A DNA stretch of 64,000 bases from Endomicrobiia bacterium (GCA_039630545.1 JBCNUU010000001.1:96001-160000); one strand, 5' to 3'; positions 9,000 to 33,276 are shown, numbered from the stretch's first letter. Numbers and translations: made by a program. Notes: generated by a model not told the origin, from the sequence alone.

Positions 9000-9001
9000 T
9001 A

Positions 9002-12080: not shown

Positions 12081-12081
12081 T

Positions 12082-13461
12082 ATGAACTCTATAATTTTAG
12101 CTGGAGGAGCAGGTACTCGTCTGTGGCCATTATCAAGAAAATTTTCACCTAAATTTTTGTTAAAAATTGGTTCTTCCAGGTATTCTTTGTTTCAACAAAC
12201 ATTTCTTAGGGTAAAAAAATTTACTGCTTTAGAGAAAATTTTTGTTGTGGTAAATAGAGAATATAAGTTCTTAATAAAAGAGAATCTTCAAGATTTAAAT
12301 ATAGATTTCCCACTGGAAAATATAATTGCCGAACCCGAGGTAAGAAATACTCTTGTTGCTGTTGGTTTAGGTTGTTGGTTTATAAAAAATAAATTTTGTG
12401 ATGAAGAAATAGTAGGAGTTTTCCCTTCAGACCATATTATTAAACCATCAGGTGAACTTGTCTCATATGTTAAAAAAGCAGAAAAACTGGCAGAAGATGA
12501 AAACATAGTGTTATTCGGAATAAAACCCAATAGAGTTGAGCCAGATTATGGTCATATAAAGGTAAAAAATAAAAGTAAAAATAATGTTTGCTATAATGTT
12601 GAAGAATTTATAGAAAAGCCTGAGTATAACTTGGCTAAAAAACTGATGAAAAATCAAAATATATACTGGAATAGTGGAATTTTTGTTTTTAAAATAAAAA
12701 CCTTTTTTGAAGAATTAAAAAAATTTCAAAATGATTTATATAAAAATTTTGAAAAATTTAACTATGATGAAGTTGATAAATTGTATGAAAAGCTAAAACC
12801 TATATCAATTGATAAAGGATTGATTGAAAAAACAAATAAGTTAAAACTCATCCCTATTCAAAAAGTTTTCTGGGATGATGTTGGCAGCTGGATATCTTTT
12901 GAAAGAATTTACAAAAAGGATAAAAATAATAATGTTATTCTTTCAAAAAATTTTGATTTAGAGAGTACAAATTCAATAATAGTAGGAGACCAGAGTCGAA
13001 TAATAGTTACAGCTGGATTAAAAGACACAATTGTAGTTGATACAGAAGATGCTTTATTAGTTTTAAATAAAAGTTATATCTCCAAAATCAAACAGATAAT
13101 TGAAAAAATAAAAGATGAAACAACAAAATACCACAAAACCACAAAAAGACCGTGGGGATTTTATACAGTTTTAACAAAAAAAGACAACTACAAGGTAAAA
13201 CTCATAAATGTACAACCTAACAAAAAAATAAGCTTACAAAAACACTTAAAGCGCAGTGAGATGTGGTTTGTAGTATCAGGTGTGGCTAAAATTACCTGTA
13301 ATGGAAAAACAAAGTATGTCAAAAATGGAGAAACTTTTAAAGTAAATAAGGGTGTTCCTCACAGAATAGAAAATCCTTCCTCTACAGATATTCTTGAGAT
13401 AATAGAAGTAAGCAGAGGTAAGTATCTGGATGAAGATGATATAGTAAGGTTAGAAAAATAG
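12082..13461 (+). CDS. manC: Mannose-1-phosphate guanylyltransferase / mannose-6-phosphate isomerase
   Basis: ILAGGAGTRLWPLSR, FIEKP, WNSGIF, WDDVGSW; C-terminal cupin with RPWG and SLQKH. Confidence 0.95.
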   Translation: MNSIILAGGAGTRLWPLSRKFSPKFLLKIGSSRYSLFQQTFLRVKKFTALEKIFVVVNREYKFLIKENLQDLNIDFPLENIIAEPEVRNTLVAVGLGCWFIKNKFCDEEIVGVFPSDHIIKPSGELVSYVKKAEKLAEDENIVLFGIKPNRVEPDYGHIKVKNKSKNNVCYNVEEFIEKPEYNLAKKLMKNQNIYWNSGIFVFKIKTFFEELKKFQNDLYKNFEKFNYDEVDKLYEKLKPISIDKGLIEKTNKLKLIPIQKVFWDDVGSWISFERIYKKDKNNNVILSKNFDLESTNSIIVGDQSRIIVTAGLKDTIVVDTEDALLVLNKSYISKIKQIIEKIKDETTKYHKTTKRPWGFYTVLTKKDNYKVKLINVQPNKKISLQKHLKRSEMWFVVSGVAKITCNGKTKYVKNGETFKVNKGVPHRIENPSSTDILEIIEVSRGKYLDEDDIVRLEK

Positions 13462-15949: not shown

Positions 15950-17188
15950 ATGAAGCATAAAATAATAAAAATAGCTACAGCAATACTGGTTGTTGTGTTG
16001 TTTTTTAGCTGTAGCCAAAGAAAAACTGCTCCATCGAGTGCACAAACCCAAACATACTCATTAAATGTGATTATTAACCCTCCCGGTGCAGGAACAGTTA
16101 CACTTAATCCTTCCGGACCCACATACAACGCAGGAACAGTTGTAACACTTACAGCCACCCCACACAGTGGATATGTGTTTTCTAGTTGGGCTGGAGATTT
16201 AACCGGGACAACAAATCCTGCTACTATTACTATGAACTCAAACAAAACTGTAGTAGCTAACTTTACTCAAACCGGAAGTGGCGGTGGTGGCAGTGGTGGT
16301 GGCAGTGGTGGTGGCAGCGGTGGTGGCGGCGGTACTACTACTACTTATACTCTTAATGTATTAATTTCTCCACAAGGAGCGGGAGCAGTTACCTTAAATC
16401 CTGCAGGGGGGACGTATCCTGCTGGGACTCAAGTTACACTTACAGCAACTCCTTATTCAGGTTATATATTTTCATCTTGGTCAGGTGACCTAACAGGAAC
16501 TTCAAATCCTGTAACAATTATTATGAACTCTAATAAATCTGTAACAGCTGTTTTCACTGCCTCTGGTGGTGGCAGTGGCGGTGGCGGTGGTGGTGGCGGC
16601 GGTGGTGGTGCTGATACTGCAAAATATAATTTTGAGACTACTGCTCAAGGTTGGCAGGCACAAACTTGGAGGGATTCTCAAGGAATTACTGCTGTAGCAA
16701 GAGATACATCAAAAGCAAAAAATGGAGTGGCAAGCTTAAGGTGTACGGTAAATATACAGGGAGGAGATGAAACAGTTTTACCTAACACAAAAGGTGAAGC
16801 ATGGGTAGATATGCAAAATAATCGCCCTTCTGGAGTTACTACTGTGCCTGTAAATTTATCTAATGCAACTGTTTCTGTATGGGTATTCTTACCAGATGAA
16901 GCAGCAGGAGATCCACAAAAACCAAATGGTATTCAGATTTTCTTTAAAGATAGCAATTGGAAAAATAGATATAGTTCTTGGAAAAACATAGGTAATCCAC
17001 CTTATGGACTTGAAACGAATACTTGGGTGCAGATTACGATTGATTGTGCTACTGAACAGTGGGCATATGATGAAGCAGGATTTGATATGACTAAAGTTAG
17101 AGCAGTTGGTGTAAAAATTGGAACTGGTGGTGGCTCAACAGCTACATTTAATGGCTACATCTGGATTGATTCTTTTGATTGGCAGTAA
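15950..17188 (+). CDS. Surface lipoprotein: 2 divergent InlB B-type repeats, Gly linkers, C-terminal CBM-like domain
   Basis: Lipobox FFSC; two ~73-aa repeats (VTLTA...GYxFxxWxGD...ANF); Trp-rich C-terminal beta domain (YNFE...QGW...YIWID); strong SD AAGGAGG. Confidence 0.8.
   Translation: MKHKIIKIATAILVVVLFFSCSQRKTAPSSAQTQTYSLNVIINPPGAGTVTLNPSGPTYNAGTVVTLTATPHSGYVFSSWAGDLTGTTNPATITMNSNKTVVANFTQTGSGGGGSGGGSGGGSGGGGGTTTTYTLNVLISPQGAGAVTLNPAGGTYPAGTQVTLTATPYSGYIFSSWSGDLTGTSNPVTIIMNSNKSVTAVFTASGGGSGGGGGGGGGGGADTAKYNFETTAQGWQAQTWRDSQGITAVARDTSKAKNGVASLRCTVNIQGGDETVLPNTKGEAWVDMQNNRPSGVTTVPVNLSNATVSVWVFLPDEAAGDPQKPNGIQIFFKDSNWKNRYSSWKNIGNPPYGLETNTWVQITIDCATEQWAYDEAGFDMTKVRAVGVKIGTGGGSTATFNGYIWIDSFDWQ
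16274..16333 (+). repeat. Low-complexity (GGN)n repeat encoding a GS/G linker
   Basis: ggtggtggcagt units; a second poly-Gly tract lies at about 16565-16609. Confidence 0.85.
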
Positions 17189-17200
17189 TTTTTGTGTTGA

Positions 17201-17246
17201 AAAGAGGGGGTACTCTTTTAATGAAGCGAGAGTGCCCCCTCTCTTT
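17201..17246 (+). terminator. GC-rich stem-loop (terminator or 3' stabiliser)
   Basis: GAGGGGGTACTCT / AGAGTGCCCCCTC inverted repeat just after the stop codon; short T tail. Confidence 0.65.
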
Positions 17247-17389: not shown

Positions 17390-19399
17390 ATGAAGAAATT
17401 GTTTATTTTCTTTCTAACTGTAAATTTTATATTATTTAATTTCTTAAGTTGTGCTAAAAAATCAAAATCACCAGTAACTACATCTACAACCACTTACACG
17501 TTAGTTGTGGTATGTAATCCTCAGACTGGCGGTGAGGTAGTATTAAATCCTCCAGGTGGAACATATAATGCTGGTACAGTTGTTACTATTGCTGCTTCTG
17601 CAAAAAGTGGCTATGTTTTTAGCGGATGGAGTGGTGATTTGACAGGTACACAAAATCCTGTTACTGTTTTGATGGATAGAAACAAAACAATAGTAGCTAA
17701 TTTTACACAACAAAGTACAACTGCTTATTATACACTTACAGTTAATATCTCTCCAGCTGCAGCAGGAGTAGTTGTACCTTCAAGTGGTACATATGCTGCT
17801 GGGACACAACTTACTTTAACAGCCACTGCTTCAAGCGGGTATGTGTTTAGTCACTGGAGTGGAGATTTAACAGGCACAACAAATCCTGCACAAATCACTA
17901 TGGATTCAAACAAAGTAATTACAGCTAATTTTACACAGCAGCAAGTAAGCACCTACACTCTTACTGTAAACATAAATCCTTTAGGTGGTGGTACTGTACT
18001 ATTTAATCCTCCTGGTGGTACATATCCTGCTGGAACACAAGTGACACTTACAGCTAAGGCAAATCCTGGTTATGTGTTTAATAACTGGAGTGGTGATGCA
18101 AGTGGGAATTCTGCCTCTGTGAGTATCGTGATGGATTCGAATAAAACTGTTACGGCAAACTTTACTCAGACAGGTGGTGGAGGTGGAACGACTTATACTC
18201 TTCTTGTTAGTATAGAGCCCTCTGAAGCAGGAACGGTTTCTTTGAATCCAGCTGGTGGAGTGTATACGGCTGGAACTGTGGTGACACTTCAGGCACACCC
18301 TGAAAGTGGTTGGGTATTTGAAGGATGGAGTGGTAATCTTTCTGGCAACCAAAATCCAACTACTATTACAATGAATTCAAACAAAGTAGTTACAGCTAAT
18401 TTTACCAAACAGCAGACCACCTATACGCTTACTGTTAACATAAATCCAGATGGTGGTGGAAATGTTACGTTGAATCCTGCTGGTGGCACATATACTGCTG
18501 GAACGCAGGTGACCTTAACAGCTACTGCTTCAAGTGGGTATGTATTTAGCCACTGGAGTGGAGATTTAACAGGAACAACAAACCATGCAACGATAACAAT
18601 GAACTCAAACAAAGTAGTTACAGCTAATTTTACCCAACAGCAACAGCCCACCTATACACTTACTGTTAACATAAATCCAGCTGGTGGTGGAAATGTTACA
18701 CTGGATCCTGCTGGTGGTACATATACTGCTGGACAGGTAGTAATATTAACGGCTACTCCTTCAAGTGGATATCAGTTTTTAAACTGGACAATAGGACAAA
18801 ATACAGTAACCTCAAACCCAACTACAGTTACAATGGATTCTAACAAAACAGTAACAGCTAATTTTGAACAAGTAGGTTCTGATACAGCAAGGTATAATTT
18901 TGAAACATCTGTTCAGGGTTGGGTCCATCAGACATATACTGATTCTCAAGCAATTACAGCGGTATCAAGAGATACATCAAAAGCAAGATATGGTCAGGCA
19001 AGTTTAAGATGTACAGTTAACCTTCAAGGAGGACATGCTAACTATTCTAAAGGTGAGACATTTGTAGACCTTCAAACGCCGACTGATTTAAGTAATAAAA
19101 TAGTTACAGTATGGGTATGGGTCCCTTCTGAAACAGTTGCTACACCATCTAACGGTATCCAGGTATTTTTTAAAGACTCAAATTGGAATAGTAAATATAG
19201 TAGCTGGCGCAATATAGGTGGTGATATTACTCCTGGAGTATGGAATCAGATCTCAGTAAATACAGCTAATGAAGTATGGGGTTGGGATAATGGTTGTAAT
19301 TTGTCCCAGGTAAGGTTGGTTGGAGTGAAGATAGGGACCGGAGATGGTTCAACTTTTACATTTAATGGTTATATTTGGATTGATTCTGTAAACTGGTAA
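17390..19399 (+). CDS. Surface lipoprotein: 6 divergent InlB B-type repeats plus C-terminal CBM-like domain
   Basis: Lipobox FLSC; six repeats counted; C-terminal domain clearly paralogous to that of 15950-17188. Confidence 0.8.
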   Translation: MKKLFIFFLTVNFILFNFLSCAKKSKSPVTTSTTTYTLVVVCNPQTGGEVVLNPPGGTYNAGTVVTIAASAKSGYVFSGWSGDLTGTQNPVTVLMDRNKTIVANFTQQSTTAYYTLTVNISPAAAGVVVPSSGTYAAGTQLTLTATASSGYVFSHWSGDLTGTTNPAQITMDSNKVITANFTQQQVSTYTLTVNINPLGGGTVLFNPPGGTYPAGTQVTLTAKANPGYVFNNWSGDASGNSASVSIVMDSNKTVTANFTQTGGGGGTTYTLLVSIEPSEAGTVSLNPAGGVYTAGTVVTLQAHPESGWVFEGWSGNLSGNQNPTTITMNSNKVVTANFTKQQTTYTLTVNINPDGGGNVTLNPAGGTYTAGTQVTLTATASSGYVFSHWSGDLTGTTNHATITMNSNKVVTANFTQQQQPTYTLTVNINPAGGGNVTLDPAGGTYTAGQVVILTATPSSGYQFLNWTIGQNTVTSNPTTVTMDSNKTVTANFEQVGSDTARYNFETSVQGWVHQTYTDSQAITAVSRDTSKARYGQASLRCTVNLQGGHANYSKGETFVDLQTPTDLSNKIVTVWVWVPSETVATPSNGIQVFFKDSNWNSKYSSWRNIGGDITPGVWNQISVNTANEVWGWDNGCNLSQVRLVGVKIGTGDGSTFTFNGYIWIDSVNW

Positions 19400-19448: not shown

Positions 19449-20354
19449 ATGAGAGGTTATTGCAGATTTAAGCCCTTGTTGCTTTATATTTTTTTATTGT
19501 CATTATCTTTTTATGTTTTTTGTAGCGGATTTAGTGGATTAAAACTGTTTTTTGGAGCAAGAACCACTGGGTTAGGTGAAAATTTATGTGGTTTATCAGA
19601 GGAAGTAGAAAATATTTACCACAATCCTGCCGGTCTTGTGGGAATAAATCCTTTTGAATTTAAAATTATGTATTCAAATTGGGTAGCAGATATAAATAGA
19701 AGTGATTTGATTTTAGCAAAATCTTTTAAAAATAAATCCGTGGTTGCTTTTTCTTTTAACTATATGTGGACAAGACTTGAAAGTGAATATAATAGTAGTG
19801 ATTATTTTTCTTTAATACACACTATAGCATACGCAAGAAAATTAAATAAAATTTATTTTGGATTAGGCACAACAATAGTATATGAATCTTTTTCTTTAGA
19901 AGAGGGTTATAATCTAGCTGGAGGTTTAGATTTAGGTGTACTTATCAGAAAACAAAGAGCTGCTTTAGGCTTTAGTGTAAAACAAATAGGAAAAAGTTTT
20001 GTTTATATGGGAGAAGACTCAGAGATTTTGCCTTTTAATTTAAACTGTGGAGTAAGTTATATAATGCCTAACAATTTTGTTGTAGTTGGTAACATAAAAT
20101 ACAATTTGGATGGTTTAATTTCATTCCATACAGGATTAGAAGTTCCTCTATATAGAGGAATAAAAGAAGAAATAGCTATAAGAGCAGGCAATGTATTAAA
20201 ATTACCATCCCTTAGTGATTTGCCTATAATTTCAAATTTTAGATTAGGTTTTGGATTTAGAAAAGAAGGTTTAAAGATAGATTATTGTTTGGTGCCTCTT
20301 GGAGAAAATATAGGTTTTTTTCATTATATATCTTTAGGATTTATTTTTTATTAA
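19449..20354 (+). CDS. PorV/PorQ-like outer-membrane beta-barrel
   Basis: Signal peptide, GARTTGLGE...IYHNPAGL (PorV/FadL-like N-terminal motif), amphipathic strands, aromatic C-terminus. Confidence 0.75.
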   Translation: MRGYCRFKPLLLYIFLLSLSFYVFCSGFSGLKLFFGARTTGLGENLCGLSEEVENIYHNPAGLVGINPFEFKIMYSNWVADINRSDLILAKSFKNKSVVAFSFNYMWTRLESEYNSSDYFSLIHTIAYARKLNKIYFGLGTTIVYESFSLEEGYNLAGGLDLGVLIRKQRAALGFSVKQIGKSFVYMGEDSEILPFNLNCGVSYIMPNNFVVVGNIKYNLDGLISFHTGLEVPLYRGIKEEIAIRAGNVLKLPSLSDLPIISNFRLGFGFRKEGLKIDYCLVPLGENIGFFHYISLGFIFY

Positions 20355-20358: not shown

Positions 20359-22569
20359 ATGAAGAAAATATTTTTTATAACAACCTTAATAATACTTAAT
20401 TCCAACATTTTTTTGTTTTCTCAACTTAAACCTAACCAGCTTAGAGTAAATGGAAGAAATTTATTAGATGGAAATGGACAAGTGATTCGTTTGGTTGGAA
20501 TAAATCATGGGCATGCATGGTATAGAGGATATTTAGGTTCTGCTCTTCAGGGTATAAAAAGTTGGGGTGCAAATTCTGTAAGAGTAGTTCTTTCTTGCGG
20601 TTATAGATGGACAAAAATTCCAGCTCATGAAGTTTCTGCAATAATAAGTGAAGCAAGAAATTTAGGTTTTAAAGCAATAGTTTTAGAAGTACATGATACA
20701 ACAGGTTATGGAGAAGACAGTGCTGCATGTGATCTACAAACAGCAGTCAACTACTGGATTGAGATAAAGAATGTTTTAATTGGACACGAGGATTTTGTAA
20801 TAATAAATATAGGCAATGAACCATGGGGTAACCTCAACACCAGCGGCTGGGTGAATGCTACCAAAAATGCAATATCTGCTTTAAGAAATGCCGGGTTTAC
20901 TCATGTTATAATGGTAGACGCACCTTGTTGGGGTCAGGATTGGAATAACACTATGAGATATAATGCCACAAATGTGTTGAGTGCTGATACTTTGAATAAT
21001 ACAATTCTTTCGGTTCATATGTATGGTGTCTACAATACAGCTTCAAAAGTTCAGTATTATTTAAGTTATTACTATAATAATAATTTACCACTATGCATAG
21101 GCGAATTTGGACATTATCACTCTGATGGAGATCCTGATGAACAAGCAATAGTTAATTATGCAAGACAGTACGGAATGAGTATATTTGGATGGTCCTGGTG
21201 TGGAAACAGCGGAGGAGTCGAGTATTTAGATATGGTATATAATTGGAATCCGAATAGTCCTACTAATTGGGGAAGCTGGTATAAAAATAATGCATTAAGT
21301 GATCTTCCTCAAACTTATACTATTTCTATCAACATAAATCCTCAGAACTCAGGAAGTGTCACTTTATCTCCACCAGGTGGAACATATACAGCAGGCACTC
21401 AAGTTACACTTACAGCGCAGGCTAACAGTGGATATGTATTTAGCAGCTGGTCAGGAGATATAACTGGCAGTCAAAACCCGGCCACTGTTGTTATGAACTC
21501 AAATAAAAATATAACTGCTAATTTTATTCAATCAACTGTTAACACTTACAGGTTATCTTTAAGTATTTCTCCTTCCGGTTCAGGTGTGGTTTATCTAAAC
21601 CCTTCAGGTGGGTTATATATAGCAGGAACTCAGGTGACTCTTACAGCACAACCTAACAGTGGTTATGTATTTAACAGCTGGAGTGGGGATCTCTCTGGTA
21701 GTCAGAATCCCGCAAGTATTGTTATGGACTCCAACAAAAGTATTACAGCAAACTTTGTACAATCAGGTTCAACCAGTATTACTTATACTTTAAATATAAC
21801 TATTTCACCACAACAAGCCGGAAAAGTAAGTGTGAATCCGGTTGGAGGTGTGTATCAAGAAAATACACAGGTTGAAATTACTGCCTTTTCAAACAATGGA
21901 TATGTGTTTTCTGGATGGAGTGGTGATATAACAACTAATGAAAATCCTTTAAAAATCACTATGAATTCTAACAAAAACATAACAGCTAATTTTTCCTCTA
22001 TAAGTAGCACAACTTACACAGTTACAGTTATAATTTCACCTCAAAATGCTGGATTTGTGTACTTGAATCCAATAGGGGGTGTATATACAGCCGGGACTTT
22101 ACTTACACTTGTTGCCTATCCTCAAGATGAGTATGAATTTTTAAACTGGTCAGGAGATATTTTCTCAGAGGCCCAAACTGTAAGTATTGTGGTTGATTCT
22201 AATAAAGTAATACAAGCAAATTTTATTTTAAAATCTTCAACAGCTCCTTTTTCAGATCAAAAAGAATTTTTAGATTCTATAATTATTCTTCCTCCTTCTG
22301 AAAACCCTTTTTATTTAAACAAAACCAACAGCTATGTTAAACTAAAATATTATCTTAAACAGTCAATGTCTGTAAGGCTGAAAGTATATGATGTGTCTCT
22401 AAATTTAGTAAGGATCACAGAATACCAACACAATCAAGCTGGAGAAAATTATTTCATATTTGATGCTAAAGATGACGAAGGATATCTTTTGCCAGCAGGA
22501 CTTTATTTGTATCAAATTGAATCTCATAGTTCAAAAAGTAGTTTTGGTAAAATTTTTATAGTAAGGTGA
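20359..22569 (+). CDS. Secreted GH5 endo-beta-1,4-mannanase (GH5_8-like) with 4 B-repeats and T9SS-like C-terminal domain
   Basis: GINHGHAWY, LEVHDTTG, INIGNEP (acid/base), SVHMY, IGEFG (nucleophile), WSWCGN; C-terminus NPF...VYD...GLYLYQI...GKIFIVR. Confidence 0.88.
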   Translation: MKKIFFITTLIILNSNIFLFSQLKPNQLRVNGRNLLDGNGQVIRLVGINHGHAWYRGYLGSALQGIKSWGANSVRVVLSCGYRWTKIPAHEVSAIISEARNLGFKAIVLEVHDTTGYGEDSAACDLQTAVNYWIEIKNVLIGHEDFVIINIGNEPWGNLNTSGWVNATKNAISALRNAGFTHVIMVDAPCWGQDWNNTMRYNATNVLSADTLNNTILSVHMYGVYNTASKVQYYLSYYYNNNLPLCIGEFGHYHSDGDPDEQAIVNYARQYGMSIFGWSWCGNSGGVEYLDMVYNWNPNSPTNWGSWYKNNALSDLPQTYTISININPQNSGSVTLSPPGGTYTAGTQVTLTAQANSGYVFSSWSGDITGSQNPATVVMNSNKNITANFIQSTVNTYRLSLSISPSGSGVVYLNPSGGLYIAGTQVTLTAQPNSGYVFNSWSGDLSGSQNPASIVMDSNKSITANFVQSGSTSITYTLNITISPQQAGKVSVNPVGGVYQENTQVEITAFSNNGYVFSGWSGDITTNENPLKITMNSNKNITANFSSISSTTYTVTVIISPQNAGFVYLNPIGGVYTAGTLLTLVAYPQDEYEFLNWSGDIFSEAQTVSIVVDSNKVIQANFILKSSTAPFSDQKEFLDSIIILPPSENPFYLNKTNSYVKLKYYLKQSMSVRLKVYDVSLNLVRITEYQHNQAGENYFIFDAKDDEGYLLPAGLYLYQIESHSSKSSFGKIFIVR

Positions 22570-24260
22570 AAATTCTTTTTGTTATATTTTTATCTTTTCT
22601 TGTTTATTTAAACACATTAAAAAATGATTTTGTTTGGGATGATACATCAATTATTGTAAATAACAAATGGATTAGAACTCCCTCAAATTTTTTTAAATTT
22701 TTTATATTGAAAGAAACTATTTCCGAAGATACAAGAACAAAGCCATACATATATAGACCACTTGTAACCTTTAGTTATTCTTTAGATTATTCAGTCTGGA
22801 GACTTTCTTCGTTTGGTTATCATTTAAGCAATATAATTTTTCATACAGTTACGGTTATATTTTTATACATACTTACAGATTTGATTTTAAATAACAAAAA
22901 AATTTCTTTATTTAGTAGTGTAATTTTTGCAGTGCATCCTGTGCATACAGAGGCAGTAAGCTGGATAAAAGGCAGAGCTGATATTTTGGCTTGTATGTTT
23001 TGTATGTTATCTTTTATATTCTACATATTGTATTTCATTAGAAATGAAAGATTTATTTATTACTTTTTGTCCTTATTGTTCTTTATTTTTGGATTATTTT
23101 CAAAAGAATCAGCAGTTGCTTTAGTTGGTATTATAATTGCATATGATATAATTTTTAAAAAGAAATTTCTCTTTAAGAGTTATATTTTGTTTATAATAGT
23201 TTTATTTCTTTACATTATTTTAAGAAAAAGTGTATTAGGAAGCAATCTACCTTATAGATGGTGGGCAGGAAGTCAGTATTATACTTTTTTAACTGCTATG
23301 AAAGTTCTAGTTGAGTATTTCAGGTTGTTGGTTTTTCCTATAAATTTATGTGCTGATTATGTCGTTGAGATTTCGTTTAATGTATTTGACTTAAAAGTAA
23401 TTTTTTCAATTCTATTTTTAATTTTTTTAATTACTATTTCATTTATTTCTATTAAAAGATTTTCAATTTTTTCTTTTTGCATTTTTTTTATCTTGATTTC
23501 ATTACTACCAGTTGCAAATATTATTTTCCCGATTGAAGTATTACTGGCAGAAAGATTTTTATATATGCCTTCTGTTGGCATGTGTTTATTTTTTGGCTGG
23601 TTAGTGTATAGAATTTTAACAAGAAACAAAACATTGGGATATATAGTTTTTGTTTTAATTGTGCTTCCTTATTCAATTTTAACCTGTAATCGCAACAAAG
23701 ACTGGAAAGATGAATTTAACCTGTGGTCTAAGACAGCAAAACAATTTCCTGATAACTTTAGAGCACACAACAACTTAGGTATGGAGTATGAAAAATCAGG
23801 AAATTTAGAAAAAGCTCTTTACCACTACAAAATAGCATCAAACCTCACACCTAATCTGTCATGGTTACACAATGATAAGAACCAGACATATGCAAGAGTA
23901 TATAATAATATTGGAAATGTTTATTTCAAACAAAAAAATTTTAACACAGCAATTGAATATTATAAAAAAGCTATTGATTTAGATCCTTTATATTCTTCAC
24001 CTTACTTTAACTTAGGCTTATTATATAGAAATAAAGGTTTACTGGATTTAGCTATCTATTACTACAAAAAAGCAATAGAACTTAATCCGTATGTTGCAGA
24101 CTACTATAACAATCTTGGAGTGGTGTATGCATTAAAGGATGATTTTAAAGAAGCTATTATTCAATATGAAAAAGCAGTGGAGTTGTCTTCAGATGAAGAT
24201 TTTAAAAAACAAGTGCTTAAAAATATAGAGATAGCAAAAAATTTTTTGAGGAGAAAATGA
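22566..24260 (+). CDS. TMTC-like (DUF1736-type) GT-C membrane protein with TPR repeats
   Basis: NDFVWDD, YRPL, HPVHTEAVSWIKGRAD, SKESA and AERFLYMPSVG motifs; C-terminal TPRs. Overlaps both neighbours (GTGA, ATGA). Confidence 0.8.
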   Translation: MKILFVIFLSFLVYLNTLKNDFVWDDTSIIVNNKWIRTPSNFFKFFILKETISEDTRTKPYIYRPLVTFSYSLDYSVWRLSSFGYHLSNIIFHTVTVIFLYILTDLILNNKKISLFSSVIFAVHPVHTEAVSWIKGRADILACMFCMLSFIFYILYFIRNERFIYYFLSLLFFIFGLFSKESAVALVGIIIAYDIIFKKKFLFKSYILFIIVLFLYIILRKSVLGSNLPYRWWAGSQYYTFLTAMKVLVEYFRLLVFPINLCADYVVEISFNVFDLKVIFSILFLIFLITISFISIKRFSIFSFCIFFILISLLPVANIIFPIEVLLAERFLYMPSVGMCLFFGWLVYRILTRNKTLGYIVFVLIVLPYSILTCNRNKDWKDEFNLWSKTAKQFPDNFRAHNNLGMEYEKSGNLEKALYHYKIASNLTPNLSWLHNDKNQTYARVYNNIGNVYFKQKNFNTAIEYYKKAIDLDPLYSSPYFNLGLLYRNKGLLDLAIYYYKKAIELNPYVADYYNNLGVVYALKDDFKEAIIQYEKAVELSSDEDFKKQVLKNIEIAKNFLRRK

Positions 24261-26230
24261 GAGGTTTTTTAATAAGTTTTATTTTTTATACAAATGTATG
24301 TTTTTGTTTACCTACTATTAATACAGTGCTGCCTGAAAAAAACAGAGTAGGTAAATATGAAAAATTTGAATTAGTGGTTGAAATTTCGGCAACATACACA
24401 AATCCATATGATCCTCACCAAGTAGACCTATCGTGTGTGTTTTTTTCTCCAAGTAATAAAGAATGGAGAATATTTGGTTTTTATGACGGGACAAAGTGGA
24501 AAATAAGATTTACTCCAAATGAAACTGGAGTTTGGAGCTACAGAGTTTTTTTAAAAGATCAAACAGGACAAACTGAATCTAATCTTTTAAGCTTTGAATG
24601 CATGGAGTCTGATTCCCATGGTTGGATTAAAGTAGCACCTAACAAAAGATATCTAATGTATGACGATAATACTCCGTTTTATGGAGTTGGATTTTGTAGA
24701 GCGTGGAATTCTCTAAGTGTCCCGTTTGAAACATTAAAAGAGTTTGGAGTTAACATGATATTAATCTGGGTTGGTCCTCCATGGGTTGGGATGATTGAAA
24801 ATACTTCAAAAGGTATTGGTATTTATGATCAACAGATATGTTATACAATAGAAAACTATATTCAGCAAGCAGAAAAAAATAATATCCATATAATACTCTG
24901 TTTGTGGCCTCACGATGCTTTAAGAATTCCAGGACAGCCATGGCCATCAGGAAACTGGGCGAAAAATGCCTACAGTCTTATTACAACTCCAGAAGGTTTT
25001 TATTCAGATACATCTACAGTATGGGATTATCAACAAAAACTTTATAGATACATTATTGCCAGATGGGGATATAGCACATCTTTAGCTATATGGAATATAA
25101 TAGTGGAGATCAATGGAACCACAGGCTACTCTATAAATCCTTCTGCTGCTGAAGAATGGTGTAAAAGAGTGCATAATTTTTTCAAACAAAACGATCCTTA
25201 CAAAAAACCTACATGTGGTTCTAAATCAGGCGATCAGTTTTGGAATAACGGATACAATATTTTTGATATTGCAGAGATTCATACATATAAGGATAAAAAT
25301 AATGCTTCAGAAGTAGCAGATACTATTATAACCTATACAAGACAAATGTGGGCAGGTTTTTTAAAACCAAACTTCGTTGGAGAATTTGGGACAGATGATC
25401 AAAATTTACAGCCATTTCATTTACACAATGCTATCTGGGCAGGTTTGTCTGCAGGAGCAGCTATAACTCCGTTAGATTGGAATGACGGTGGTAGTTGGGG
25501 AGATATTACTGATGATATGCTTCAACATATGAAAATTTTTTCAAACTTTATAAAAGAAATTGATTTTGTGAATGATGATTTTATACCTGCTAATGTTTCT
25601 GTTGTTCCTTCTGGTGAGGTTTTTGGAATGAAAGGGAATAAGTGTTGTTTTGGCTGGATAAGGAAAACAGATGACACTATTGAGAGAGTATTAACCATTT
25701 CAGGAATGACAGATGGCGTATATGAAATGAAGTTTTATGATACATATACAGGAGATTTTTTTTATATTACTTTAGCAACTTCAACTTATGGATTTTTATC
25801 AACAAAAATCCCAGCTATTTCTAAAACTGATTTTGCTTTTAAAGGGTATCTTAAATTTTCTAATAATCAATCTTCGGGTAACAAAGAATTCACCGTGGAA
25901 GGAGAATTACTTAAAATTTTACCATTAGAGAAAAATCCTGTAAAATTTTATAAAGATAAAGAAGTAAAAATAAGATTTCTTGTTAATATTCAGATTCCTT
26001 CTAAAGTGAAAGTTACTATTTATGATATAAACATGAATTTAGTCAAAATTCTTACAAGTTCTTCGGATGGTTGGTTAAAAGTTTTTTCTCCATATCAGGA
26101 ATTTACATGGGATTTAAAAGACGAAAATGGTAGAGAAGTTGACGGTGGTCTTTATATTTACAAAATAGAAGCAATAAATGATTATAAAGTTAAAAGTAGT
26201 AAATTAAATAAAATTATGGTAATAAAATAA
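24257..26230 (+). CDS. Secreted DUF5060 + GH5-like (clan GH-A) hydrolase with T9SS-like C-terminal domain
   Basis: NPYDP...GFYDG...WKIRFTP (DUF5060-like), YIIARWGYS, IHTY, VGEFG; C-terminus IYD...WDLKDENG...GLYIYKI...KIMVIK. Confidence 0.75.
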   Translation: MRGFLISFIFYTNVCFCLPTINTVLPEKNRVGKYEKFELVVEISATYTNPYDPHQVDLSCVFFSPSNKEWRIFGFYDGTKWKIRFTPNETGVWSYRVFLKDQTGQTESNLLSFECMESDSHGWIKVAPNKRYLMYDDNTPFYGVGFCRAWNSLSVPFETLKEFGVNMILIWVGPPWVGMIENTSKGIGIYDQQICYTIENYIQQAEKNNIHIILCLWPHDALRIPGQPWPSGNWAKNAYSLITTPEGFYSDTSTVWDYQQKLYRYIIARWGYSTSLAIWNIIVEINGTTGYSINPSAAEEWCKRVHNFFKQNDPYKKPTCGSKSGDQFWNNGYNIFDIAEIHTYKDKNNASEVADTIITYTRQMWAGFLKPNFVGEFGTDDQNLQPFHLHNAIWAGLSAGAAITPLDWNDGGSWGDITDDMLQHMKIFSNFIKEIDFVNDDFIPANVSVVPSGEVFGMKGNKCCFGWIRKTDDTIERVLTISGMTDGVYEMKFYDTYTGDFFYITLATSTYGFLSTKIPAISKTDFAFKGYLKFSNNQSSGNKEFTVEGELLKILPLEKNPVKFYKDKEVKIRFLVNIQIPSKVKVTIYDINMNLVKILTSSSDGWLKVFSPYQEFTWDLKDENGREVDGGLYIYKIEAINDYKVKSSKLNKIMVIK

Positions 26231-26248: not shown

Positions 26249-29200
26249 ATGAAAAGTAAAATATTAGTTTTTATAAATACAGTTTTATTTGCTTTTTTTT
26301 GTTCTGGTTATTCTAAAGATTGGTATGTGCTGGAAGATTTTGAAGGTGTAAACTACTGGTCAATAGTAAGCTGGAAAACAGCTACTAAAGCTGTAAGTAT
26401 TTCAAAAGAAATTTTCTCTGAAGGAGAAAAGGCACTTAAAGTTGATTTTGAAAATTCCGATTGGTCTGAAAAAGCACAGGTTATGATAGAGCAGTTTTTT
26501 GATTTCTCAGGAGTAGAAAAAATTTCCATGGATATTTATAATCCAAATAAAGAAACACTTCTTACTACAATGGCTTTATGTACCGGTGATAAATGGGAGT
26601 GGTATGAATCACCTGAACAAAGGTTAGTTTCTGGATGGAATAAAGAAGTCACTTTTAATTTGCGTTCTCCTAACTGGAAAGCAGAAAGAAGCGGATGGAG
26701 AAACATAATTAAAGTTGAGAACCTCAAAGATGTAAGAAGAATTACTTTAACTTTTGTTGGTGGAAGAGGTCCTGTATATATAGATAATATTAAAGTTTAT
26801 GGGGAAAAGAAAATTGATAAAATTTCACCCACAATAAAACAGATAGGTGATAAGATATTGTTTGAATCGTTTGAAGAAGATAAGACACAATGGAGTATAG
26901 CAGGATGGCGCACTCAAGCAGTGGAAGTAAAATTTAACGAAAAATGGGCTACCGATGGTAAAAAAAGTTTAGAACTTATTTTTGAAGATGTTACTGACTC
27001 TAACAAAGCATCCTACTGTATAGAGGGAGACTTCAATTGGGAGAAAGTCAACAGATTTTATATAGATGTGTTTAATCCTCTTAAAAAAAACATAAAAATA
27101 AACTTAGCTCTTTCCACAGGTGGTGGTTGGATATGGTATGAATCTCCTGACAAAGTGTTAACTCCAGGAGAAAATAAAGATATAGAATTTGACCTCAATG
27201 CGAAAAATTTTAAATGTGAAGCAACAAATTGGACTTACTCAAGTTATGTAAAACATAAGGAGAAAGTAAAAAGAATAGCAATACAGGTTATCGCGCCTCA
27301 GGGAGAGACACTTAGTGGCTCAGTAAGTATTGACAACTTAAGAATCACAGAAGGAGAACCTTTAGTGATACCTGTAGAAATAAAACCACCTAAATATCCT
27401 GAGGTAGTAAATCCTTCCAGATACAGTATACCCAAAATCAAATCGATTACTTCAAATTTAGAAATGGTGGGTCAATATGAAAAGTTTGAACTTACATTAG
27501 AAATTGATTCTTATTTTGAAAATCCATATAATCCTAATGAAGTGCTATTAACTGGGATTTTTATTTCTCCGGATGGAAAAACATATAGAGTTCCTGGATT
27601 TTATTACGAAGATTTTAGAGAAGAAACTGGTCTTTTAAAACCAACTGGTAAGAAGTACTGGAAGATTCGTTTTTCACCGAATAAAATTGGTAGCTGGGAC
27701 TATTATGTGGAATTTAAAAATCCAGCAGGAAAAATTGAAAGTAAAAGACAAAGTTTTGAGTGCGTAAGTTCAAGAAATAAAGGAATAATCGTAGTTTCTG
27801 AAAGTAAAAATTACTTTAAATTTATCACTGGAGGAACATATTTCCCTTTAGGACAGAATGTTTGCTGGGTGACAGCTTCTGATAATTGGAAATACTCTGA
27901 TTATTTGAGAAAACTTTCGGAAACAGGCCAGAACTGGACTAGACTATGGAACTGTCCGTGGGGTTTTATAATAGAATGGGGAGAACCAAGAGGACAGGGG
28001 CTTGGAAGATATAATCAAAAAGATAGTTTTGAGTTTGACAGAATAATAGAACTTGCAGAAAAATTAGGAATTTATATCCAGTTTTGTTTGGATTATCATG
28101 GAGCTTTTGATGAAGAAATAACATGGGAGCAAAATGCTTATAACTTTGTAAATGGAGGACCATGTAAAAAACCAATTGATTTCTTTAAAGATGAAACAGC
28201 AAAAGAGTATTATAAAAGGAGGTTAAGATATGTAGTAGCAAGATGGGGATATAGCTGTGCTATCATGGCGTGGGAATTTTTAAATGAAGCAGACCTAATT
28301 TCTGATTATGATGAAAATATATTAAGAGAATGGCACAAAGAGATGGCTACATACCTTAAAGAAATAGATTACAATGGCCATTTAATTACGACTTCTTTTG
28401 CAAGAGCTTTTGCCGGAGATACTATTTTTAAACTTCCTGAAATAAGCTATACACAAACACATATGTATACAGATGAGGTAATAAATGGAATCTATAGTAT
28501 CGCCATAGAAAAAAGAAACAGATACAAAAAACCTCATTTCTTTGGTGAAATAGGAGGAGCAATTACAGATGCCTCAGTTGAAGCAAAAGATAAAAAAGGT
28601 ATACTTCTGCATGATACTCTCTGGGCTTCTGTGATGAGTTTAAACTCAGGTACAGCTATGTACTGGTGGTGGGACGGTCATATAAAACCAAATAATCTTT
28701 ATTATCATTATGCTGCTGTTTCAAAGTTTTTAAAAGGTATAGATTACGATTCTAAAAACTTCTCTTTAGTAGAAGCAGAATCTATTGGAGAAGCCGACTA
28801 TACAGATTTAGTTTATTCTCCGCCATTAGATTGGGAAAAATCAATTATGTTTTCTGATATGCTTTTAATAGATAAAAGCGGTTTAGTTAAAGGGGGACTT
28901 TTATCAAGATATTTCCAGAGTCCTAAATGGCACAAAGATATGTATGTGGTTCCAACTTTTAGTGTGGAGTATCCTACAGATGGAAGTTTTTCTATTTATG
29001 TTCTTCAGTCAGCAAAAATAGGTGCTAATTTGAAAATCTATATTGATGATAAACTTATGCTTTCAGAAGAATTTCCTAAAGGAAGAAGTGATTTTAAAAT
29101 ACAAAAATCATTTTCAGTACCAGTTTCAAAAGGAAAACATATAATAAAGATAATAAATGACGGAGATGACTGGTTTAATGTTGGAAATCTTACATTTACA

Positions 29201-29500
29201 AATCTTATAAACAAATGTCAGGTAGTTGGTATAAAATCAGCTTCTGGAGATTTTATCCTTTTGTGGCTTAAAAATCCAAGATATAATGTAAAAAACTATC
29301 TTTCAGGGATTCAGCCTCCAAAAGTAAAAAATGCTAGAATCCAAATAAAAGATGTAAATGACGGAGATTATAATGTAGAGTTCTGGGATACATGGAATGG
29401 GAATATAGTTTCAAAGAAAAATTTTACAGCAACAAATAAAACATTAGTTATTCTTGTGCCGGAGTTTGACAGCGATATAGCATGTAAAATTTATAAATAA
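26249..29500 (+). CDS. Multidomain glycoside hydrolase: 2 CBM-like domains + DUF5060 + GH5-like domain
   Basis: Two homologous N-terminal domains (FE...W...SL...TGxxWxWYES...IDN), NPYNP...WKIRFSP, RYVVARWGYS, WEFLNE, HMY, GEIGG; signal peptide; no CTD. Confidence 0.78.
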   Translation: MKSKILVFINTVLFAFFCSGYSKDWYVLEDFEGVNYWSIVSWKTATKAVSISKEIFSEGEKALKVDFENSDWSEKAQVMIEQFFDFSGVEKISMDIYNPNKETLLTTMALCTGDKWEWYESPEQRLVSGWNKEVTFNLRSPNWKAERSGWRNIIKVENLKDVRRITLTFVGGRGPVYIDNIKVYGEKKIDKISPTIKQIGDKILFESFEEDKTQWSIAGWRTQAVEVKFNEKWATDGKKSLELIFEDVTDSNKASYCIEGDFNWEKVNRFYIDVFNPLKKNIKINLALSTGGGWIWYESPDKVLTPGENKDIEFDLNAKNFKCEATNWTYSSYVKHKEKVKRIAIQVIAPQGETLSGSVSIDNLRITEGEPLVIPVEIKPPKYPEVVNPSRYSIPKIKSITSNLEMVGQYEKFELTLEIDSYFENPYNPNEVLLTGIFISPDGKTYRVPGFYYEDFREETGLLKPTGKKYWKIRFSPNKIGSWDYYVEFKNPAGKIESKRQSFECVSSRNKGIIVVSESKNYFKFITGGTYFPLGQNVCWVTASDNWKYSDYLRKLSETGQNWTRLWNCPWGFIIEWGEPRGQGLGRYNQKDSFEFDRIIELAEKLGIYIQFCLDYHGAFDEEITWEQNAYNFVNGGPCKKPIDFFKDETAKEYYKRRLRYVVARWGYSCAIMAWEFLNEADLISDYDENILREWHKEMATYLKEIDYNGHLITTSFARAFAGDTIFKLPEISYTQTHMYTDEVINGIYSIAIEKRNRYKKPHFFGEIGGAITDASVEAKDKKGILLHDTLWASVMSLNSGTAMYWWWDGHIKPNNLYYHYAAVSKFLKGIDYDSKNFSLVEAESIGEADYTDLVYSPPLDWEKSIMFSDMLLIDKSGLVKGGLLSRYFQSPKWHKDMYVVPTFSVEYPTDGSFSIYVLQSAKIGANLKIYIDDKLMLSEEFPKGRSDFKIQKSFSVPVSKGKHIIKIINDGDDWFNVGNLTFTNLINKCQVVGIKSASGDFILLWLKNPRYNVKNYLSGIQPPKVKNARIQIKDVNDGDYNVEFWDTWNGNIVSKKNFTATNKTLVILVPEFDSDIACKIYK

Positions 29501-29525: not shown

Positions 29526-31136
29526 ATGGACGTAACCAAAAAAATAATAAGTGTAATAGTTATATTGGTAAGTGTAACAAGCATAATGTATGCCCCTATA
29601 AGGTCTTTTGAATTTATAGGTGAAGTAAGAGCTTGGTGGTCACGTACAAACAACGCCTGGGATAAAACAGAAACTATTCTTCGTCCAGATGGTTCTGCGG
29701 AATTTGATGATGTAAATGACTTTATGTTTTCTGATACAAAATTAGGAGTAAGAGGAAGTATCTTAAGAGATGTGTTTGGAGTAATAGAAGTTGAAAAAAG
29801 AGATACTTTATGGGCAACACATAATAATTCTTTTAACGCAGAGCATTATGGGACAATCGGGGGGTATCTTGGTGATCCTAATATTCAGAATCCTACAAAC
29901 TATACTGGTTATAAAATTACGAAATCCTATATAGTATGGGATAAAATTTATGATTTGTTTTCAGTTGTTGTTGGAAGACAGTTTATTTCAGGAACAGAGT
30001 ATCCTGATCCAGAAAGAATGGATTTAGTTTTGTGTATGACAATGGATGGCTTCAGAGCTGATATTTTTTCAGAATATGGGAAAATTATGCTATTTAAGGC
30101 GAAACTAAACGAATCTACTGCTCCTCTCTATGCTCCACACGGTGGATTAGCCTGGGAGACAAAATATGAAGACAAAGATTTTGATGCTCAGGGAGTTATG
30201 GTAAAATCAGCATCTTTACTTCCAGGACATAGATTAAAAATGTACCTTTTAAATTCCATAATAAATGATCCTGCAGAAACTAATCCTGTTGGAAAAATTT
30301 TTAGTCAATACGATTTAAGGAATATTTTAGGTTTTAGAGTAGATGGAGGACTATCTTTTGGTTTGGACTACGGAGTTGAATTTGCTTATCTTTTTGGAGA
30401 GAAGTATGTTACTACTTACAGAGCACTTGATCCTGTTACATTAAATTATGTAACTAAAGATTATTATGGTTTAGCTTCAAGAAAAGCTTTTGCTTTTCAT
30501 ATTATGGCACAATACAAACGTTCAATGGGTGCACCTATTATGGAGTCGCCTACATTGCTTAAAGTATACACTAATATCCTTGGAGGTTCAGGAGATGATT
30601 CAACCACACCTGATGATGAAGGATTTATTGGTCTAAATGACGATTGGTGGACAAGAGCAAGAGGTTATGATCATCAGGGTTATGGAGAAATTTATAAAGC
30701 TAATCCCTACCAGCATAATAGATTTACTTCAGGTGATAACCCGACAGAGGTATATGATGGAAGGTATGTAGAAAAAAGTATATGTTTATATCCAGCAAGG
30801 ATAATTAATTTAGGAGCAAGATATGAATTTAGTGAAGGAGGAAAACTTCAGGGACTATATGCCGGGTTTGATTTTTATCTTTATAACCACTTAAGTCCTG
30901 ATGGAGTTATAATAACAAACGAAGATAATCAAAAAGAGCAAACGGACGATTTAGGTAAAGAAATAAATCTCCAGATTGGTTATACCTATAAATACTCTAC
31001 TTCATTCAGGTTAGTTTTAGGATGGTTTTTCCCTGGCAGAGCTTACATAAACGGAAAAGATGCTCAGACGGGCGCTGTAATTGGTGCAGATCCTGTCTCT
31101 TTAATAAAATTAGAAACAGCTGTATACTTTTATTAA
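29526..31136 (+). CDS. Outer-membrane beta-barrel protein (alginate-export-like; putative oligosaccharide porin)
   Basis: Signal peptide, VGRQ, DG, DLGKEINL and FFPG patterns, terminal aromatic strand ETAVYFY. Confidence 0.6.
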   Translation: MDVTKKIISVIVILVSVTSIMYAPIRSFEFIGEVRAWWSRTNNAWDKTETILRPDGSAEFDDVNDFMFSDTKLGVRGSILRDVFGVIEVEKRDTLWATHNNSFNAEHYGTIGGYLGDPNIQNPTNYTGYKITKSYIVWDKIYDLFSVVVGRQFISGTEYPDPERMDLVLCMTMDGFRADIFSEYGKIMLFKAKLNESTAPLYAPHGGLAWETKYEDKDFDAQGVMVKSASLLPGHRLKMYLLNSIINDPAETNPVGKIFSQYDLRNILGFRVDGGLSFGLDYGVEFAYLFGEKYVTTYRALDPVTLNYVTKDYYGLASRKAFAFHIMAQYKRSMGAPIMESPTLLKVYTNILGGSGDDSTTPDDEGFIGLNDDWWTRARGYDHQGYGEIYKANPYQHNRFTSGDNPTEVYDGRYVEKSICLYPARIINLGARYEFSEGGKLQGLYAGFDFYLYNHLSPDGVIITNEDNQKEQTDDLGKEINLQIGYTYKYSTSFRLVLGWFFPGRAYINGKDAQTGAVIGADPVSLIKLETAVYFY

Positions 31137-32377: not shown

Positions 32378-33276
32378 AAAAAAGAAAAAAATTTAAAAAA
32401 CATTTAATATCTTATTTATTTATTTTACCTGCTTTTCTTATTCTTAGTATTTTCGTGTTTATTCCGGTGGTGGCTTCTTTCTTTTTAAGTTTTACAGAAT
32501 ATGATGGTATTTCTCCTCCAAAAGTTGTTGGACTTAAAAATTATGTTGATATACTTTTTCATGATAGATTATTCTGGAAAGCCGTGATTAACACTGTCTA
32601 CTATGTTATATTTACTGTACCAATAGGAATAGCCTGTTCTTTAGCTGTTGCTATGGCTTTATACCAAAAAATCAGATTCAGTGCTTTATTTAGAACTGGA
32701 TTTTTTCTGCCGACAGTTACTTCAGTTGCTGCTATTTCAGTTGTATGGAGATGGATATATTCTGGAGACAGATATGGTTTGTTAAACTATATATTGACTA
32801 AATTAGGAGTGCTTGCAGTGTTGCAAGACTGGCTTATGCAACCATCTACAACACTGCCTGCTATAATAGTAATGAGCATCTGGGGTGGTGTTGGATACAA
32901 TACAATTATACTTTTAGCTGGACTCCAGTCTATTCCTGATAGTGTTCTGGAAGCAGCTAAAATAGATGGAGCTACTCCCTGGGAAAGATTCTGGTATGTT
33001 ATACTACCAATGCTTAAACCTGTTATGCTTTTTTTAGTAATAATGTCTACTATTAACTCTTTTCAAGTATTTGAGCAGGTCTACATCATGGCTTCAACCA
33101 CAGAATATTTTGGTGGTGTTTTGTATTCTGCTTTAACGATTGTGCCCTATTTGTATGAAAGAGCATTCAAAAGGTTTTTGCTTGGTTATGCTTCTGCATT
33201 AGCATATCTTTTGTTTGCTATAATTTTTATGATAACACTAATATATATGAAAGTTTCAAAGTTTTATGAACAGTAA
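32374..33276 (+). CDS. Carbohydrate ABC transporter permease
   Basis: EAA loop LAGLQSIP..VLEAAKIDGA. Confidence 0.93.
   Translation: MKKRKKFKKHLISYLFILPAFLILSIFVFIPVVASFFLSFTEYDGISPPKVVGLKNYVDILFHDRLFWKAVINTVYYVIFTVPIGIACSLAVAMALYQKIRFSALFRTGFFLPTVTSVAAISVVWRWIYSGDRYGLLNYILTKLGVLAVLQDWLMQPSTTLPAIIVMSIWGGVGYNTIILLAGLQSIPDSVLEAAKIDGATPWERFWYVILPMLKPVMLFLVIMSTINSFQVFEQVYIMASTTEYFGGVLYSALTIVPYLYERAFKRFLLGYASALAYLLFAIIFMITLIYMKVSKFYEQ

Follow-up and report, generated by a model that had tools for sequence, protein, structure and literature searches.

Why should a gene cluster for the utilisation of beta-mannan carry, locked between the genes of two secreted hydrolases, a membrane transferase resembling those that place sugars on animal proteins? 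The question is raised by a stretch of 64,000 nucleotides from an Endomicrobiia bacterium (GCA_039630545.1, JBCNUU010000001.1:96001-160000), here called the window, in which a beta-mannan utilisation cluster encloses, at 22566..24260 of the plus strand, a gene for a GT-C-type, TMTC-like glycosyltransferase with a C-terminal arm of tetratricopeptide repeats (TPR). The answer that we favour, tentatively and at a little under an even chance, is that the product is a periplasmic protein O-glycosyltransferase dedicated to its own locus.

The gene opens with GTG and encodes 564 residues. An in-frame stop at 22548-22550 precedes this GTG, the earliest possible start, so that a longer open reading frame (ORF) is impossible, and the N-termini of four orthologues, which use GTG or ATG, align at the same place. 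Upstream, the GTG (22566-22568) overlaps the TGA (22567-22569) of ORF 20359..22569, and downstream the ATG at 24257 of ORF 24257..26230 overlaps the TGA of the transferase gene (24258-24260). The GTGA and ATGA overlaps had been described in an earlier reading made from the sequence alone (the sequence-only reading), and both were recovered at 22566-22569 and 24257-24260. The tight packing with secreted hydrolases that it proposed is borne out as well, by a single run of same-strand genes with start and stop abutments conserved in relatives, and by the identity of the two neighbours, a GH5 beta-mannanase upstream and a DUF5060 hydrolase downstream (matches in Table 1). Likewise, every motif in its list could be located in the translation: FVWDD at residues 22-26, YRPL at 63-66, HPVHTEAV at 124-131, the KE motif as SKESA at 179-183 and AERFLY at 328-333, followed by the TPRs. 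The protein is laid out as a membrane module (residues 1 to about 382) and a TPR array (about 383-563), and since nine of its positions (D25, D26, R64, P125, E181, Y251, P258, L261 and Y333) are invariant in all 60 aligned homologues, the gene is not a chance reading frame. The G+C content falls to 27.3% over positions 22001-24000, where the gene lies, the neighbouring intervals having 32-34%.

The fold of the protein was approached by profile searches, by structure prediction and by comparison with solved chains. Pfam PMT_2 (PF13231) matched residues 69-218 with 29.3 bits, above the gathering cut-off of 26.1, and TPR_1 matched four stretches of the C-terminal part (E 3e-34), where the AlphaFold2 model also shows helical hairpins over residues 383-563. 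This model, built from the 60-sequence alignment, reached a predicted local distance difference test score (pLDDT) of 94.2 for the full protein and 95.6 for the membrane module (residues 1-395), and a crude hydropathy scan gave 11 hydrophobic segments. When the membrane module was compared with solved chains by an exhaustive structural aligner, the top 20 matches were all GT-C chains (Z 21.4 to 10.1), 19 of them glycosyltransferases and one the subunit U chain of glycosylphosphatidylinositol transamidase, and the next match fell to Z 8.1. AglB headed them (Z 21.4, 324 aligned residues, root-mean-square deviation 4.4), followed by ArnT (Z 20.4, 340 aligned, 4.9), STT3 (19.2), Pmt4 (18.8), Pmt1-Pmt2 (18.7), ALG12 (18.2), PglB (17.5), AftA (14.7) and PimE (12.4); among these match lists there was no solved TMTC chain. 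Foldseek returned TPR proteins only for the full model and, for the membrane module alone, GT-C matches that were weak (E no better than 3e-4), and a phmmer search of the module against the solved chains gave no match at E<=10. The AlphaFold comparison that the sequence-only reading had proposed thus identifies the module as a GT-C fold, with matches from AglB to PglB at Z 21.4-17.5. By analogy with the topology of the matched structures it follows that the TPR arm would lie on the same side of the membrane as the active site.

The motif set that Eisenhaber and colleagues worked out for human TMTC1-4 (PMC7801869) comprises DD, SHKSYRP, RxD, KE(T/Q)xxT, DW and ERxxY, and its elements can be placed one after another in the window protein. 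The first-loop DD (M1) corresponds to D25-D26, directly after the first hydrophobic segment and kept in 60/60 homologues; the core of M2 to Y63-R64-P65 (54/60, 60/60 and 59/60); M3 to R137-x-D139 (55/60 and 45/60); the core of M4 to K180-E181 (54/60 and 60/60); and M7 to E329-R330-x-x-Y333 (E in 57/60, R in 48/60, Y in 60/60). For M2 and M4 the cores alone are conserved, the SHKS and (T/Q)xxT portions being divergent, and at the M5 position, in the loop between transmembrane segments 7 and 8 that forms the DUF1736 region, the protein has D264-Y265 rather than DW, in columns occupied by D in 33, H in 11 and E in 9 of the 60 homologues and by Y in 49. A match to TMTC_DUF1736 (PF08409) at E<=0.01 is found in 17/60 of the aligned homologues, and the feature neighbours of the protein in a protein atlas include a chordate DUF1736 cluster (score 0.91). 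The TMEM260-like profile PF11028 gave no match at E<=0.01. Judged by its sequence, the protein is a TMTC-like member of the PMT_2 clan, a label that does not extend to strict membership of GT105. Its TMTC-like identity, as first proposed, finds fold, motif set and TPR arm in agreement.

The nearest known systems are the animal TMTC1-4 enzymes (CAZy GT105), in which, as here, an N-terminal GT-C module with some 11 membrane segments leads into a TPR array. They are protein O-mannosyltransferases of the endoplasmic reticulum that serve cadherins; the Ser/Thr that they modify lie on the beta-strands of beta-sandwich domains arranged as repeats, and these substrates resemble the candidate stalks of B-repeats described below. 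The DD, YRP, RxD, KE and ERxxY motifs are common to both, the aspartate-aromatic pair in the DUF1736 loop may be a further counterpart, and a sub-threshold DUF1736 match lies at the corresponding place (residues 239-288). In contrast with TMTC1-4, the window protein is bacterial, belongs to the inner membrane, faces the periplasm and is shorter (564 residues); its M5 is DY instead of DW and its DUF1736 match reaches 16.4 bits where 27 would be needed; it would draw on a sugar carried by bacterial polyprenyl phosphate; and its gene shares an operon with the candidate substrates. A second comparison is offered by TfpW of Pseudomonas aeruginosa, described (bioRxiv 10.1101/2020.04.19.049825) as a GT-C protein with 11 predicted transmembrane segments that carries a DDx motif and ends in a TPR domain on the periplasmic side. 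It is encoded directly downstream of pilA, is required for pilin glycosylation, and transfers and polymerises D-arabinofuranose on the pilin. The first half of the TfpW YX6P motif has its counterpart in the invariant Y251-x6-P258. The gene arrangement is analogous, with a secreted GH5/B-repeat gene, whose product is a candidate substrate, directly upstream of the transferase here and in three congeners and two contigs, the neighbours in the window being glycoside hydrolases and binding proteins and no pilins. Human TMEM260 (CAZy GT117) also joins a GT-C module to a TPR arm, in a different family (TMEM260-like/DUF2723); a preprint (bioRxiv 10.64898/2026.03.17.711096) reports that its TPR domain binds the acceptor peptide by itself and that the enzyme places mannose on an extended strand within a beta-sandwich (IPT) domain. 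Finally, the fungal and actinobacterial PMT enzymes (GT39) and the ArnT-type PMT_2 proteins share the Pfam PMT_2 clan and the GT-C fold, and differently from PMT the window protein has a TPR arm in the place of a MIR domain.

The proposal that the enzyme serves its own locus rests on gene order and on the way in which the gene has been inherited. Between 17390 and 35072, eleven genes follow one another on the same strand with intergenic gaps of at most 49 nucleotides, and the order GH5/B-repeat, GT-C, DUF5060 is kept in three congeners in which the transferase is 63% (G003), 61% (G002) and 49% (G001) identical to the copy of the present genome (G000), with flanking overlaps or gaps of 0-4 nucleotides. 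Two metagenome contigs (L141 and L142) have the same order, L141 probably not being independent of G001, whose identity values it equals. Among 41 genomes, orthologues of at least 47% identity were found in these four alone, and the DUF5060 hydrolase encoded at 24257 occurs in the same four and none elsewhere; the congeners G004-G007 (96, 96, 91 and 77% complete) have neither the GT-C orthologue nor the hydrolase, their homologues of the transferase being about 30% identical or missing. In its own genome the gene is the sole copy of its subfamily: a profile of the membrane module run against 1497 ORFs retrieved the protein itself (E 4e-149) and one weak match (9.5e-8), and a search with the single protein retrieved TPR matches alone elsewhere. 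The GT-C gene is inherited together with the mannan locus and, within the genus, occurs in exactly the genomes that hold it, in support of the link that the sequence-only reading had supposed. The four genomes are close kin and therefore amount to one evolutionary observation, not four.

The candidate acceptors are set by the proteins of the same operon, three of which in the locus carry B-repeats. The sequence-only reading had counted 12 Thr/Ser-rich repeat modules in the neighbouring genes, and Pfam Flg_new_2 gives the same number, with 2, 6 and 4 stretches in ORFs 15950, 17390 and 20359; a regular expression recovered 11 of the 12. The carriers are indeed rich in Ser+Thr (21.8%, 24.7% and 17.9%, respectively), 11 other tabulated proteins of the locus having 9.7-13.9%. 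In the 11 aligned modules an invariant Thr-Tyr pair (T4, Y5) opens the first strand, T32 is nearly invariant, and P13, G17, P23, G25, W49, N67 and K68 are invariant too; on this alignment, T4 and T32 would be the natural candidate glycosites. A search of 13 genomes found B-repeat modules in six (23 in G000, 20 in G001, 38 in G002, 26 in G003, 7 in G005 and 1 in G010) and none in G004, G006 and G007, so that orthologue and repeats coincide in the four genomes G000-G003.

As to the donor, the absence of a polyprenyl-phosphate-mannose synthase from the window, also noted in the sequence-only reading, was upheld: of the 51 ORFs with 120 residues or more, 46 were scanned with Pfam and yielded no GT2, the remainder being four ORFs inside larger genes and ORF 63544, cut by the window end. 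The search for a Dpm1/Ppm1 homologue that it had suggested did find candidates elsewhere in the genome, which has nine GT2 matches in eight genes; four of these GT2s are Dpm1-like, resembling polyprenyl-phosphate hexose synthases, all with scores below the equivalog cut-offs. One of them (C56:16614-17303 of the same genome), with 229 residues and no predicted membrane segment, stands beside GT4 and RibD genes and is the best counterpart of five of the six GT2s that adjoin related transferase genes in other genomes (27-48% identity). Mannose is a plausible donor sugar, from the GH130, ManC and phosphomannomutase-type genes of the window (the last at 51280), genes that carry no tie to the enzyme itself.

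The genome holds further GT-C genes, with 14 PMT_2-type matches in all. About 45 kb past the window end lies a group of five PMT_2-type GT-C genes (C1:204755-212704) which contains a Dpm1/ArnC-like GT2 (C1:209112-209864). A 919-residue fusion (C12:147331-150090) joins a GT2 like those that make polyprenyl-phosphate sugars to a PMT_2 GT-C module and a PAP2 phosphatase, and to judge by these domains a single polypeptide might make the donor, transfer the sugar and recycle the lipid. Three tandem overlapping genes (C12:40799-47017; 682, 683 and 717 residues) encode TMEM260-like modules with C-terminal TPRs, scoring 99, 46 and 98 bits with PF11028 (range 46.5-99.4). They were considered as paralogues of the window gene and rejected, being TMEM260-like and aligning with it by hhalign, in the case of the first gene, over the TPR part alone. 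With this trio and the TMTC-like gene, the 1.6-Mb genome has look-alikes of both animal classes of TPR-type O-mannosyltransferase.

If the enzyme is dedicated to its locus, it could work as follows. A cytoplasmic GT2 of the Dpm1/ArnC type, for which C56:16614-17303 is the best candidate, would charge polyprenyl phosphate with one sugar, and the lipid-linked sugar would flip to the periplasmic face. The GT-C module in the inner membrane, whose motifs and fold are in place, would then transfer the sugar, D25-D26, Y63-R64-P65, R137/D139, K180-E181, D264-Y265 and E329-R330..Y333 being the residues expected to handle the donor phosphate and the metal. The TPR arm, in the periplasm, may, as the parallel with TMEM260 and TfpW suggests, grip an extended stretch of a newly exported chain so that Ser/Thr reaches the active site. 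Operon structure and co-inheritance suggest that the preferred acceptors would be the proteins of the same operon, in the first place the GH5 mannanase on its Thr/Ser-rich stalk of B-repeats, and after it the two lipoprotein-like proteins with B-repeats, the DUF5060 hydrolases, or both. The sugars would be added before transfer to the surface and would probably shield the stalks from proteases and heat.

Relatives of the gene in other genomes give this proposal a wider setting. All 141 immediate neighbours were scanned with Pfam, 75 related loci having an identifiable family gene. A secreted protein with one to four lamin-tail (LTD) domains is the same-strand upstream neighbour in 12 of the 75, of the Ignavibacteria/Bacteroidota type (L078, L079, L084, L090, L096, L098, L099, L107, L109, L113, L125 and L130), and three of these 12 proteins carry FlgD_ig or CHU_C tails. 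A pilin-like N_methyl protein stands upstream in three loci of Omnitrophota (L068, L072 and L080; also in L137) and an SLH protein in two of Peribacteria, in the candidate phyla radiation (L103 and L127). In six related loci a small GT2 adjoins the transferase gene and comes closest, in NCBIfam, to polyprenyl- or dolichyl-phosphate sugar synthases, with all scores below cut-offs; in L068 and L072 such a Dpm1-like GT2 follows the TMTC-like gene and the pilin-like gene precedes it, an arrangement that, by analogy with TfpW, may be a three-gene set of candidate substrate, transferase and donor synthase. Adjacency to surface proteins is a recurrent option in the family and no rule. A family-wide rule that places the substrate upstream was considered and downgraded, the share of signal-peptide-like upstream neighbours being 34% against a background of 22%.

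Several of the results weigh against a dedicated enzyme. The TMTC_DUF1736 match (E 0.0091) stays below its cut-off. No gene of the locus is less conserved than that of the transferase (49-63% identity, its neighbours having 57-89%), and the co-inheritance of gene and locus may reflect one variable island whose carriers are close relatives. The occurrence of B-repeats together with the enzyme, which the sequence-only reading had put forward as a test, did not hold as a property of the family: a B-repeat gene lies within 8 kb of a related GT-C gene in 1 of 78 loci, and that one belongs to the same lineage; 11 of the 23 modules of the genome are outside the mannan locus; and the congener G005 (96% complete) has seven modules, but nothing in it matches the GT-C module at E<=1e-20 or the DUF5060 hydrolase at E<=1e-10, so that B-repeat proteins can occur without the enzyme. 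Of 13 FlgD_ig matches in the genome, two are in the locus. Many members of the family sit in housekeeping contexts (LeuRS/ComEA-like, MarC/CrcB, YdjC/SmpB). By a crude heuristic, signal-peptide-like proteins make up 22 of the 64 upstream neighbours and 147 of the 655 other flanking ORFs, a modest enrichment that is even overstated because related loci are kin; downstream the same heuristic gives 14 of 55. Lastly, enzymes whose acceptor is lipid A (ArnT) or a glycan (ALG12, AftA) reach nearly the same Z scores as protein transferases, and the fold is therefore silent on the class of acceptor.

Part of this evidence suits a periplasmic enzyme that glycosylates proteins in general, with many substrates encoded elsewhere, and whose place in the operon would be an accident of the lineage, hitch-hiking on an island; we consider this unlikely, though it would be no great surprise. 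The membrane module retrieves 80,335 cluster representatives at E<=0.001 (48,621 at 1e-10 and 4,875 at 1e-30), a huge family, and relatives are encoded in at least 583 stretches of species-representative genomes, in Omnitrophota, Ignavibacteria, Planctomycetia, Bacteroidota, Peribacteria and Elusimicrobia; the gene is an ordinary member of this very large bacterial TMTC-like family. Most members are found in unrelated or housekeeping contexts, the upstream enrichment in secreted proteins is weak, and B-repeat and FlgD_ig proteins are also encoded elsewhere in the genome. Animal TMTCs, according to PMC7801869 and PMC10214176, which also mention prokaryotic homologues of TMTC and TMEM260, serve a class of proteins rather than one neighbour. 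A housekeeping role, however, predicts presence throughout the genus, whereas the gene is single-copy and limited to the four locus-bearing genomes of the genus, and relatives as distant as 49% identity keep the overlapping start and stop. Many scattered paralogues without linkage would have told against the link to the locus in the sequence-only reading, and here the outcome is divided: the subfamily is single-copy and locus-linked, but the wider family is enormous and lives mostly in unrelated contexts.

The acceptor might instead not be a protein at all: a surface polysaccharide, an anchor resembling lipopolysaccharide for proteins with C-terminal sorting domains, or periplasmic manno-oligosaccharides. 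The Z scores of ArnT, ALG12, AftA and PimE given above are comparable to those of the protein transferases; the locus has a PorV-like barrel and FlgD_ig-type C-terminal domains; and a Wzy_C gene of the O-antigen-ligase type, two GT4 genes and ManC lie 9-15 kb upstream. Periplasmic TPR arms are also found in polysaccharide-export machinery. This account is nevertheless rather unlikely. The motifs that PMC7801869 ties to TMTC protein O-mannosyltransferases are kept, M2 and M4 in their cores and M5 as DY, and TMTC, TMEM260 and TfpW, characterised enzymes that join GT-C and TPR modules, all act on proteins. Moreover, the genes that recur upstream in other genomes encode structural proteins of the surface and are not polysaccharide genes. 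That the protein is a catalytically dead scaffold or chaperone, its TPR arm aiding the folding or sorting of exported hydrolases as TPR arms can do in serving as chaperone or scaffold modules, would suit the least conserved gene of the locus but is highly improbable, since the catalytic and donor-binding positions are all present, invariant or nearly so in the 60 homologues, and the predicted membrane module has the GT-C fold in full (pLDDT 95.6).

The genes around the transferase are collected in Table 1, to which a MalK-type ATPase gene of the mannan cluster can be added.

Table 1. The transferase gene and its surroundings, in coordinates of the window.
Feature	Coordinates	Strand	Basis
TMTC-like GT-C glycosyltransferase with C-terminal TPR arm	22566..24260	+	Translation, motifs, Pfam, AlphaFold2, structural matches
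Secreted GH5 beta-mannanase, 4 B-repeats (Flg_new_2), FlgD_ig-type C-terminal domain	20359..22569	+	Pfam; PDB 1bqc, E 7e-90
DUF5060-type putative glycoside hydrolase	24257..26230	+	Pfam DUF5060, E 1.4e-15; PDB 9gmj, E 2e-32
Lipoprotein-like surface protein, 2 B-repeats, Gly-rich linkers	15950..17188	+	Pfam Flg_new_2; N-terminus ...FFSC-S
Lipoprotein-like surface protein, 6 B-repeats	17390..19399	+	Flg_new_2, E 3e-105; N-terminus ...FLSC-A
PorV/PorQ-like outer-membrane barrel	19449..20354	+	NCBIfam PorV_fam, E 2.5e-23, with 83.2 bits where 90 is the cut-off; conserved in relatives
1083-residue protein, two mannanase-type galactose-binding-like domains and DUF5060	26249..29500	+	Pfam; 70-84% identity in relatives
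536-residue protein, may be an outer-membrane barrel	29526..31136	+	Alginate_exp, E 4e-4, below cut-off; 76-89% identity in relatives
ATP-binding cassette sugar importer: 1 solute-binding protein, 2 permeases	31163..34117	+	Pfam SBP_bac_1, BPD_transp_1 x2
GH130 beta-1,4-mannooligosaccharide phosphorylase	34146..35072	+	Pfam Glyco_hydro_130, E 2.8e-70
ManC-type mannose-1-phosphate guanylyltransferase / mannose-6-phosphate isomerase	12082..13461	+	Pfam NTP_transferase, MannoseP_isomer, ManC_GMP_beta-helix

Some domain matches in these proteins are weak and below the cut-off of 27 bits: FlgD_ig in the DUF5060 hydrolase (E 6.8e-4, 20 bits), whose solved counterpart 9gmj is itself a 'DUF5060 domain-containing protein' chain, and the mannanase-type galactose-binding-like domain (Mann_GBD_bact) in ORF 15950 (E 4e-5, 24.3 bits) and at the C-terminus of ORF 17390 (E 9.8e-4, 19.8 bits). 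A literature search on DUF5060 returned nothing pertinent. The GH130 enzyme would give mannose-1-phosphate, ManC is a possible source of GDP-mannose, and the PorV/PorQ-like barrel could possibly act as a carrier for proteins with a C-terminal sorting domain; a search of the genome for SprA_N of the type IX translocon gave no match and is uninformative, the control genomes being silent too. Between 15100 and 35090, promoter-like sites (80, against 86.4±11.4 by chance) and terminator-like sites (13, against 8.9±3.6 by chance) occur as often as chance would have it and say nothing of the limits of the operon; a single terminator-like site, at 17228-17243, is intergenic.

Upstream of the mannan locus, positions 7782-13461 hold a cluster of GT4, Wzy_C (O-antigen-ligase/PglL-type, 653 residues), GT4 and ManC, genes for a surface glycan or possibly for protein glycosylation, separated from the locus by CstA and zinc-ribbon genes only; in G003, too, ManC and CstA adjoin the mannan locus. 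Downstream, a 357-residue ORF at 39586-40659, whose sole match is a sigma-54 DNA-binding domain (E 2.5e-10), is accompanied by a GGDEF gene and a gene for a sigma factor of the extracytoplasmic function type.

A more far-reaching proposal is that the locus holds a self-contained bacterial counterpart of the domain-specific O-mannosylation of animals, in which Thr residues of the B-repeats, e.g. T4, would bear mannose salvaged from the degraded mannan and the clients would be encoded on the same message as the enzyme. The salvage route would lead through GH130 to mannose-1-phosphate, through ManC to GDP-mannose and then to a Dpm1-like GT2. We hold this to be improbable as a whole; were it true, the rule 'surface repeat protein, then TMTC-like transferase' would cover the LTD loci of the Ignavibacteria type, the pilin-like loci of Omnitrophota and the SLH loci of Peribacteria.

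No tested sugar or target is reported for any bacterial TMTC-like enzyme in the literature searched. The locus offers a compact pairing for this family: a single-copy transferase, a few co-inherited secreted proteins, 12 near-identical Thr-rich modules and a few candidate donor synthases. Should the pairing fail, the gene would be merely another member of a common family. Should it hold, it would provide the first substrate rule for the bacterial TMTC-like family and would bear on how the surface glycanases of a hot-spring metagenome are stabilised.

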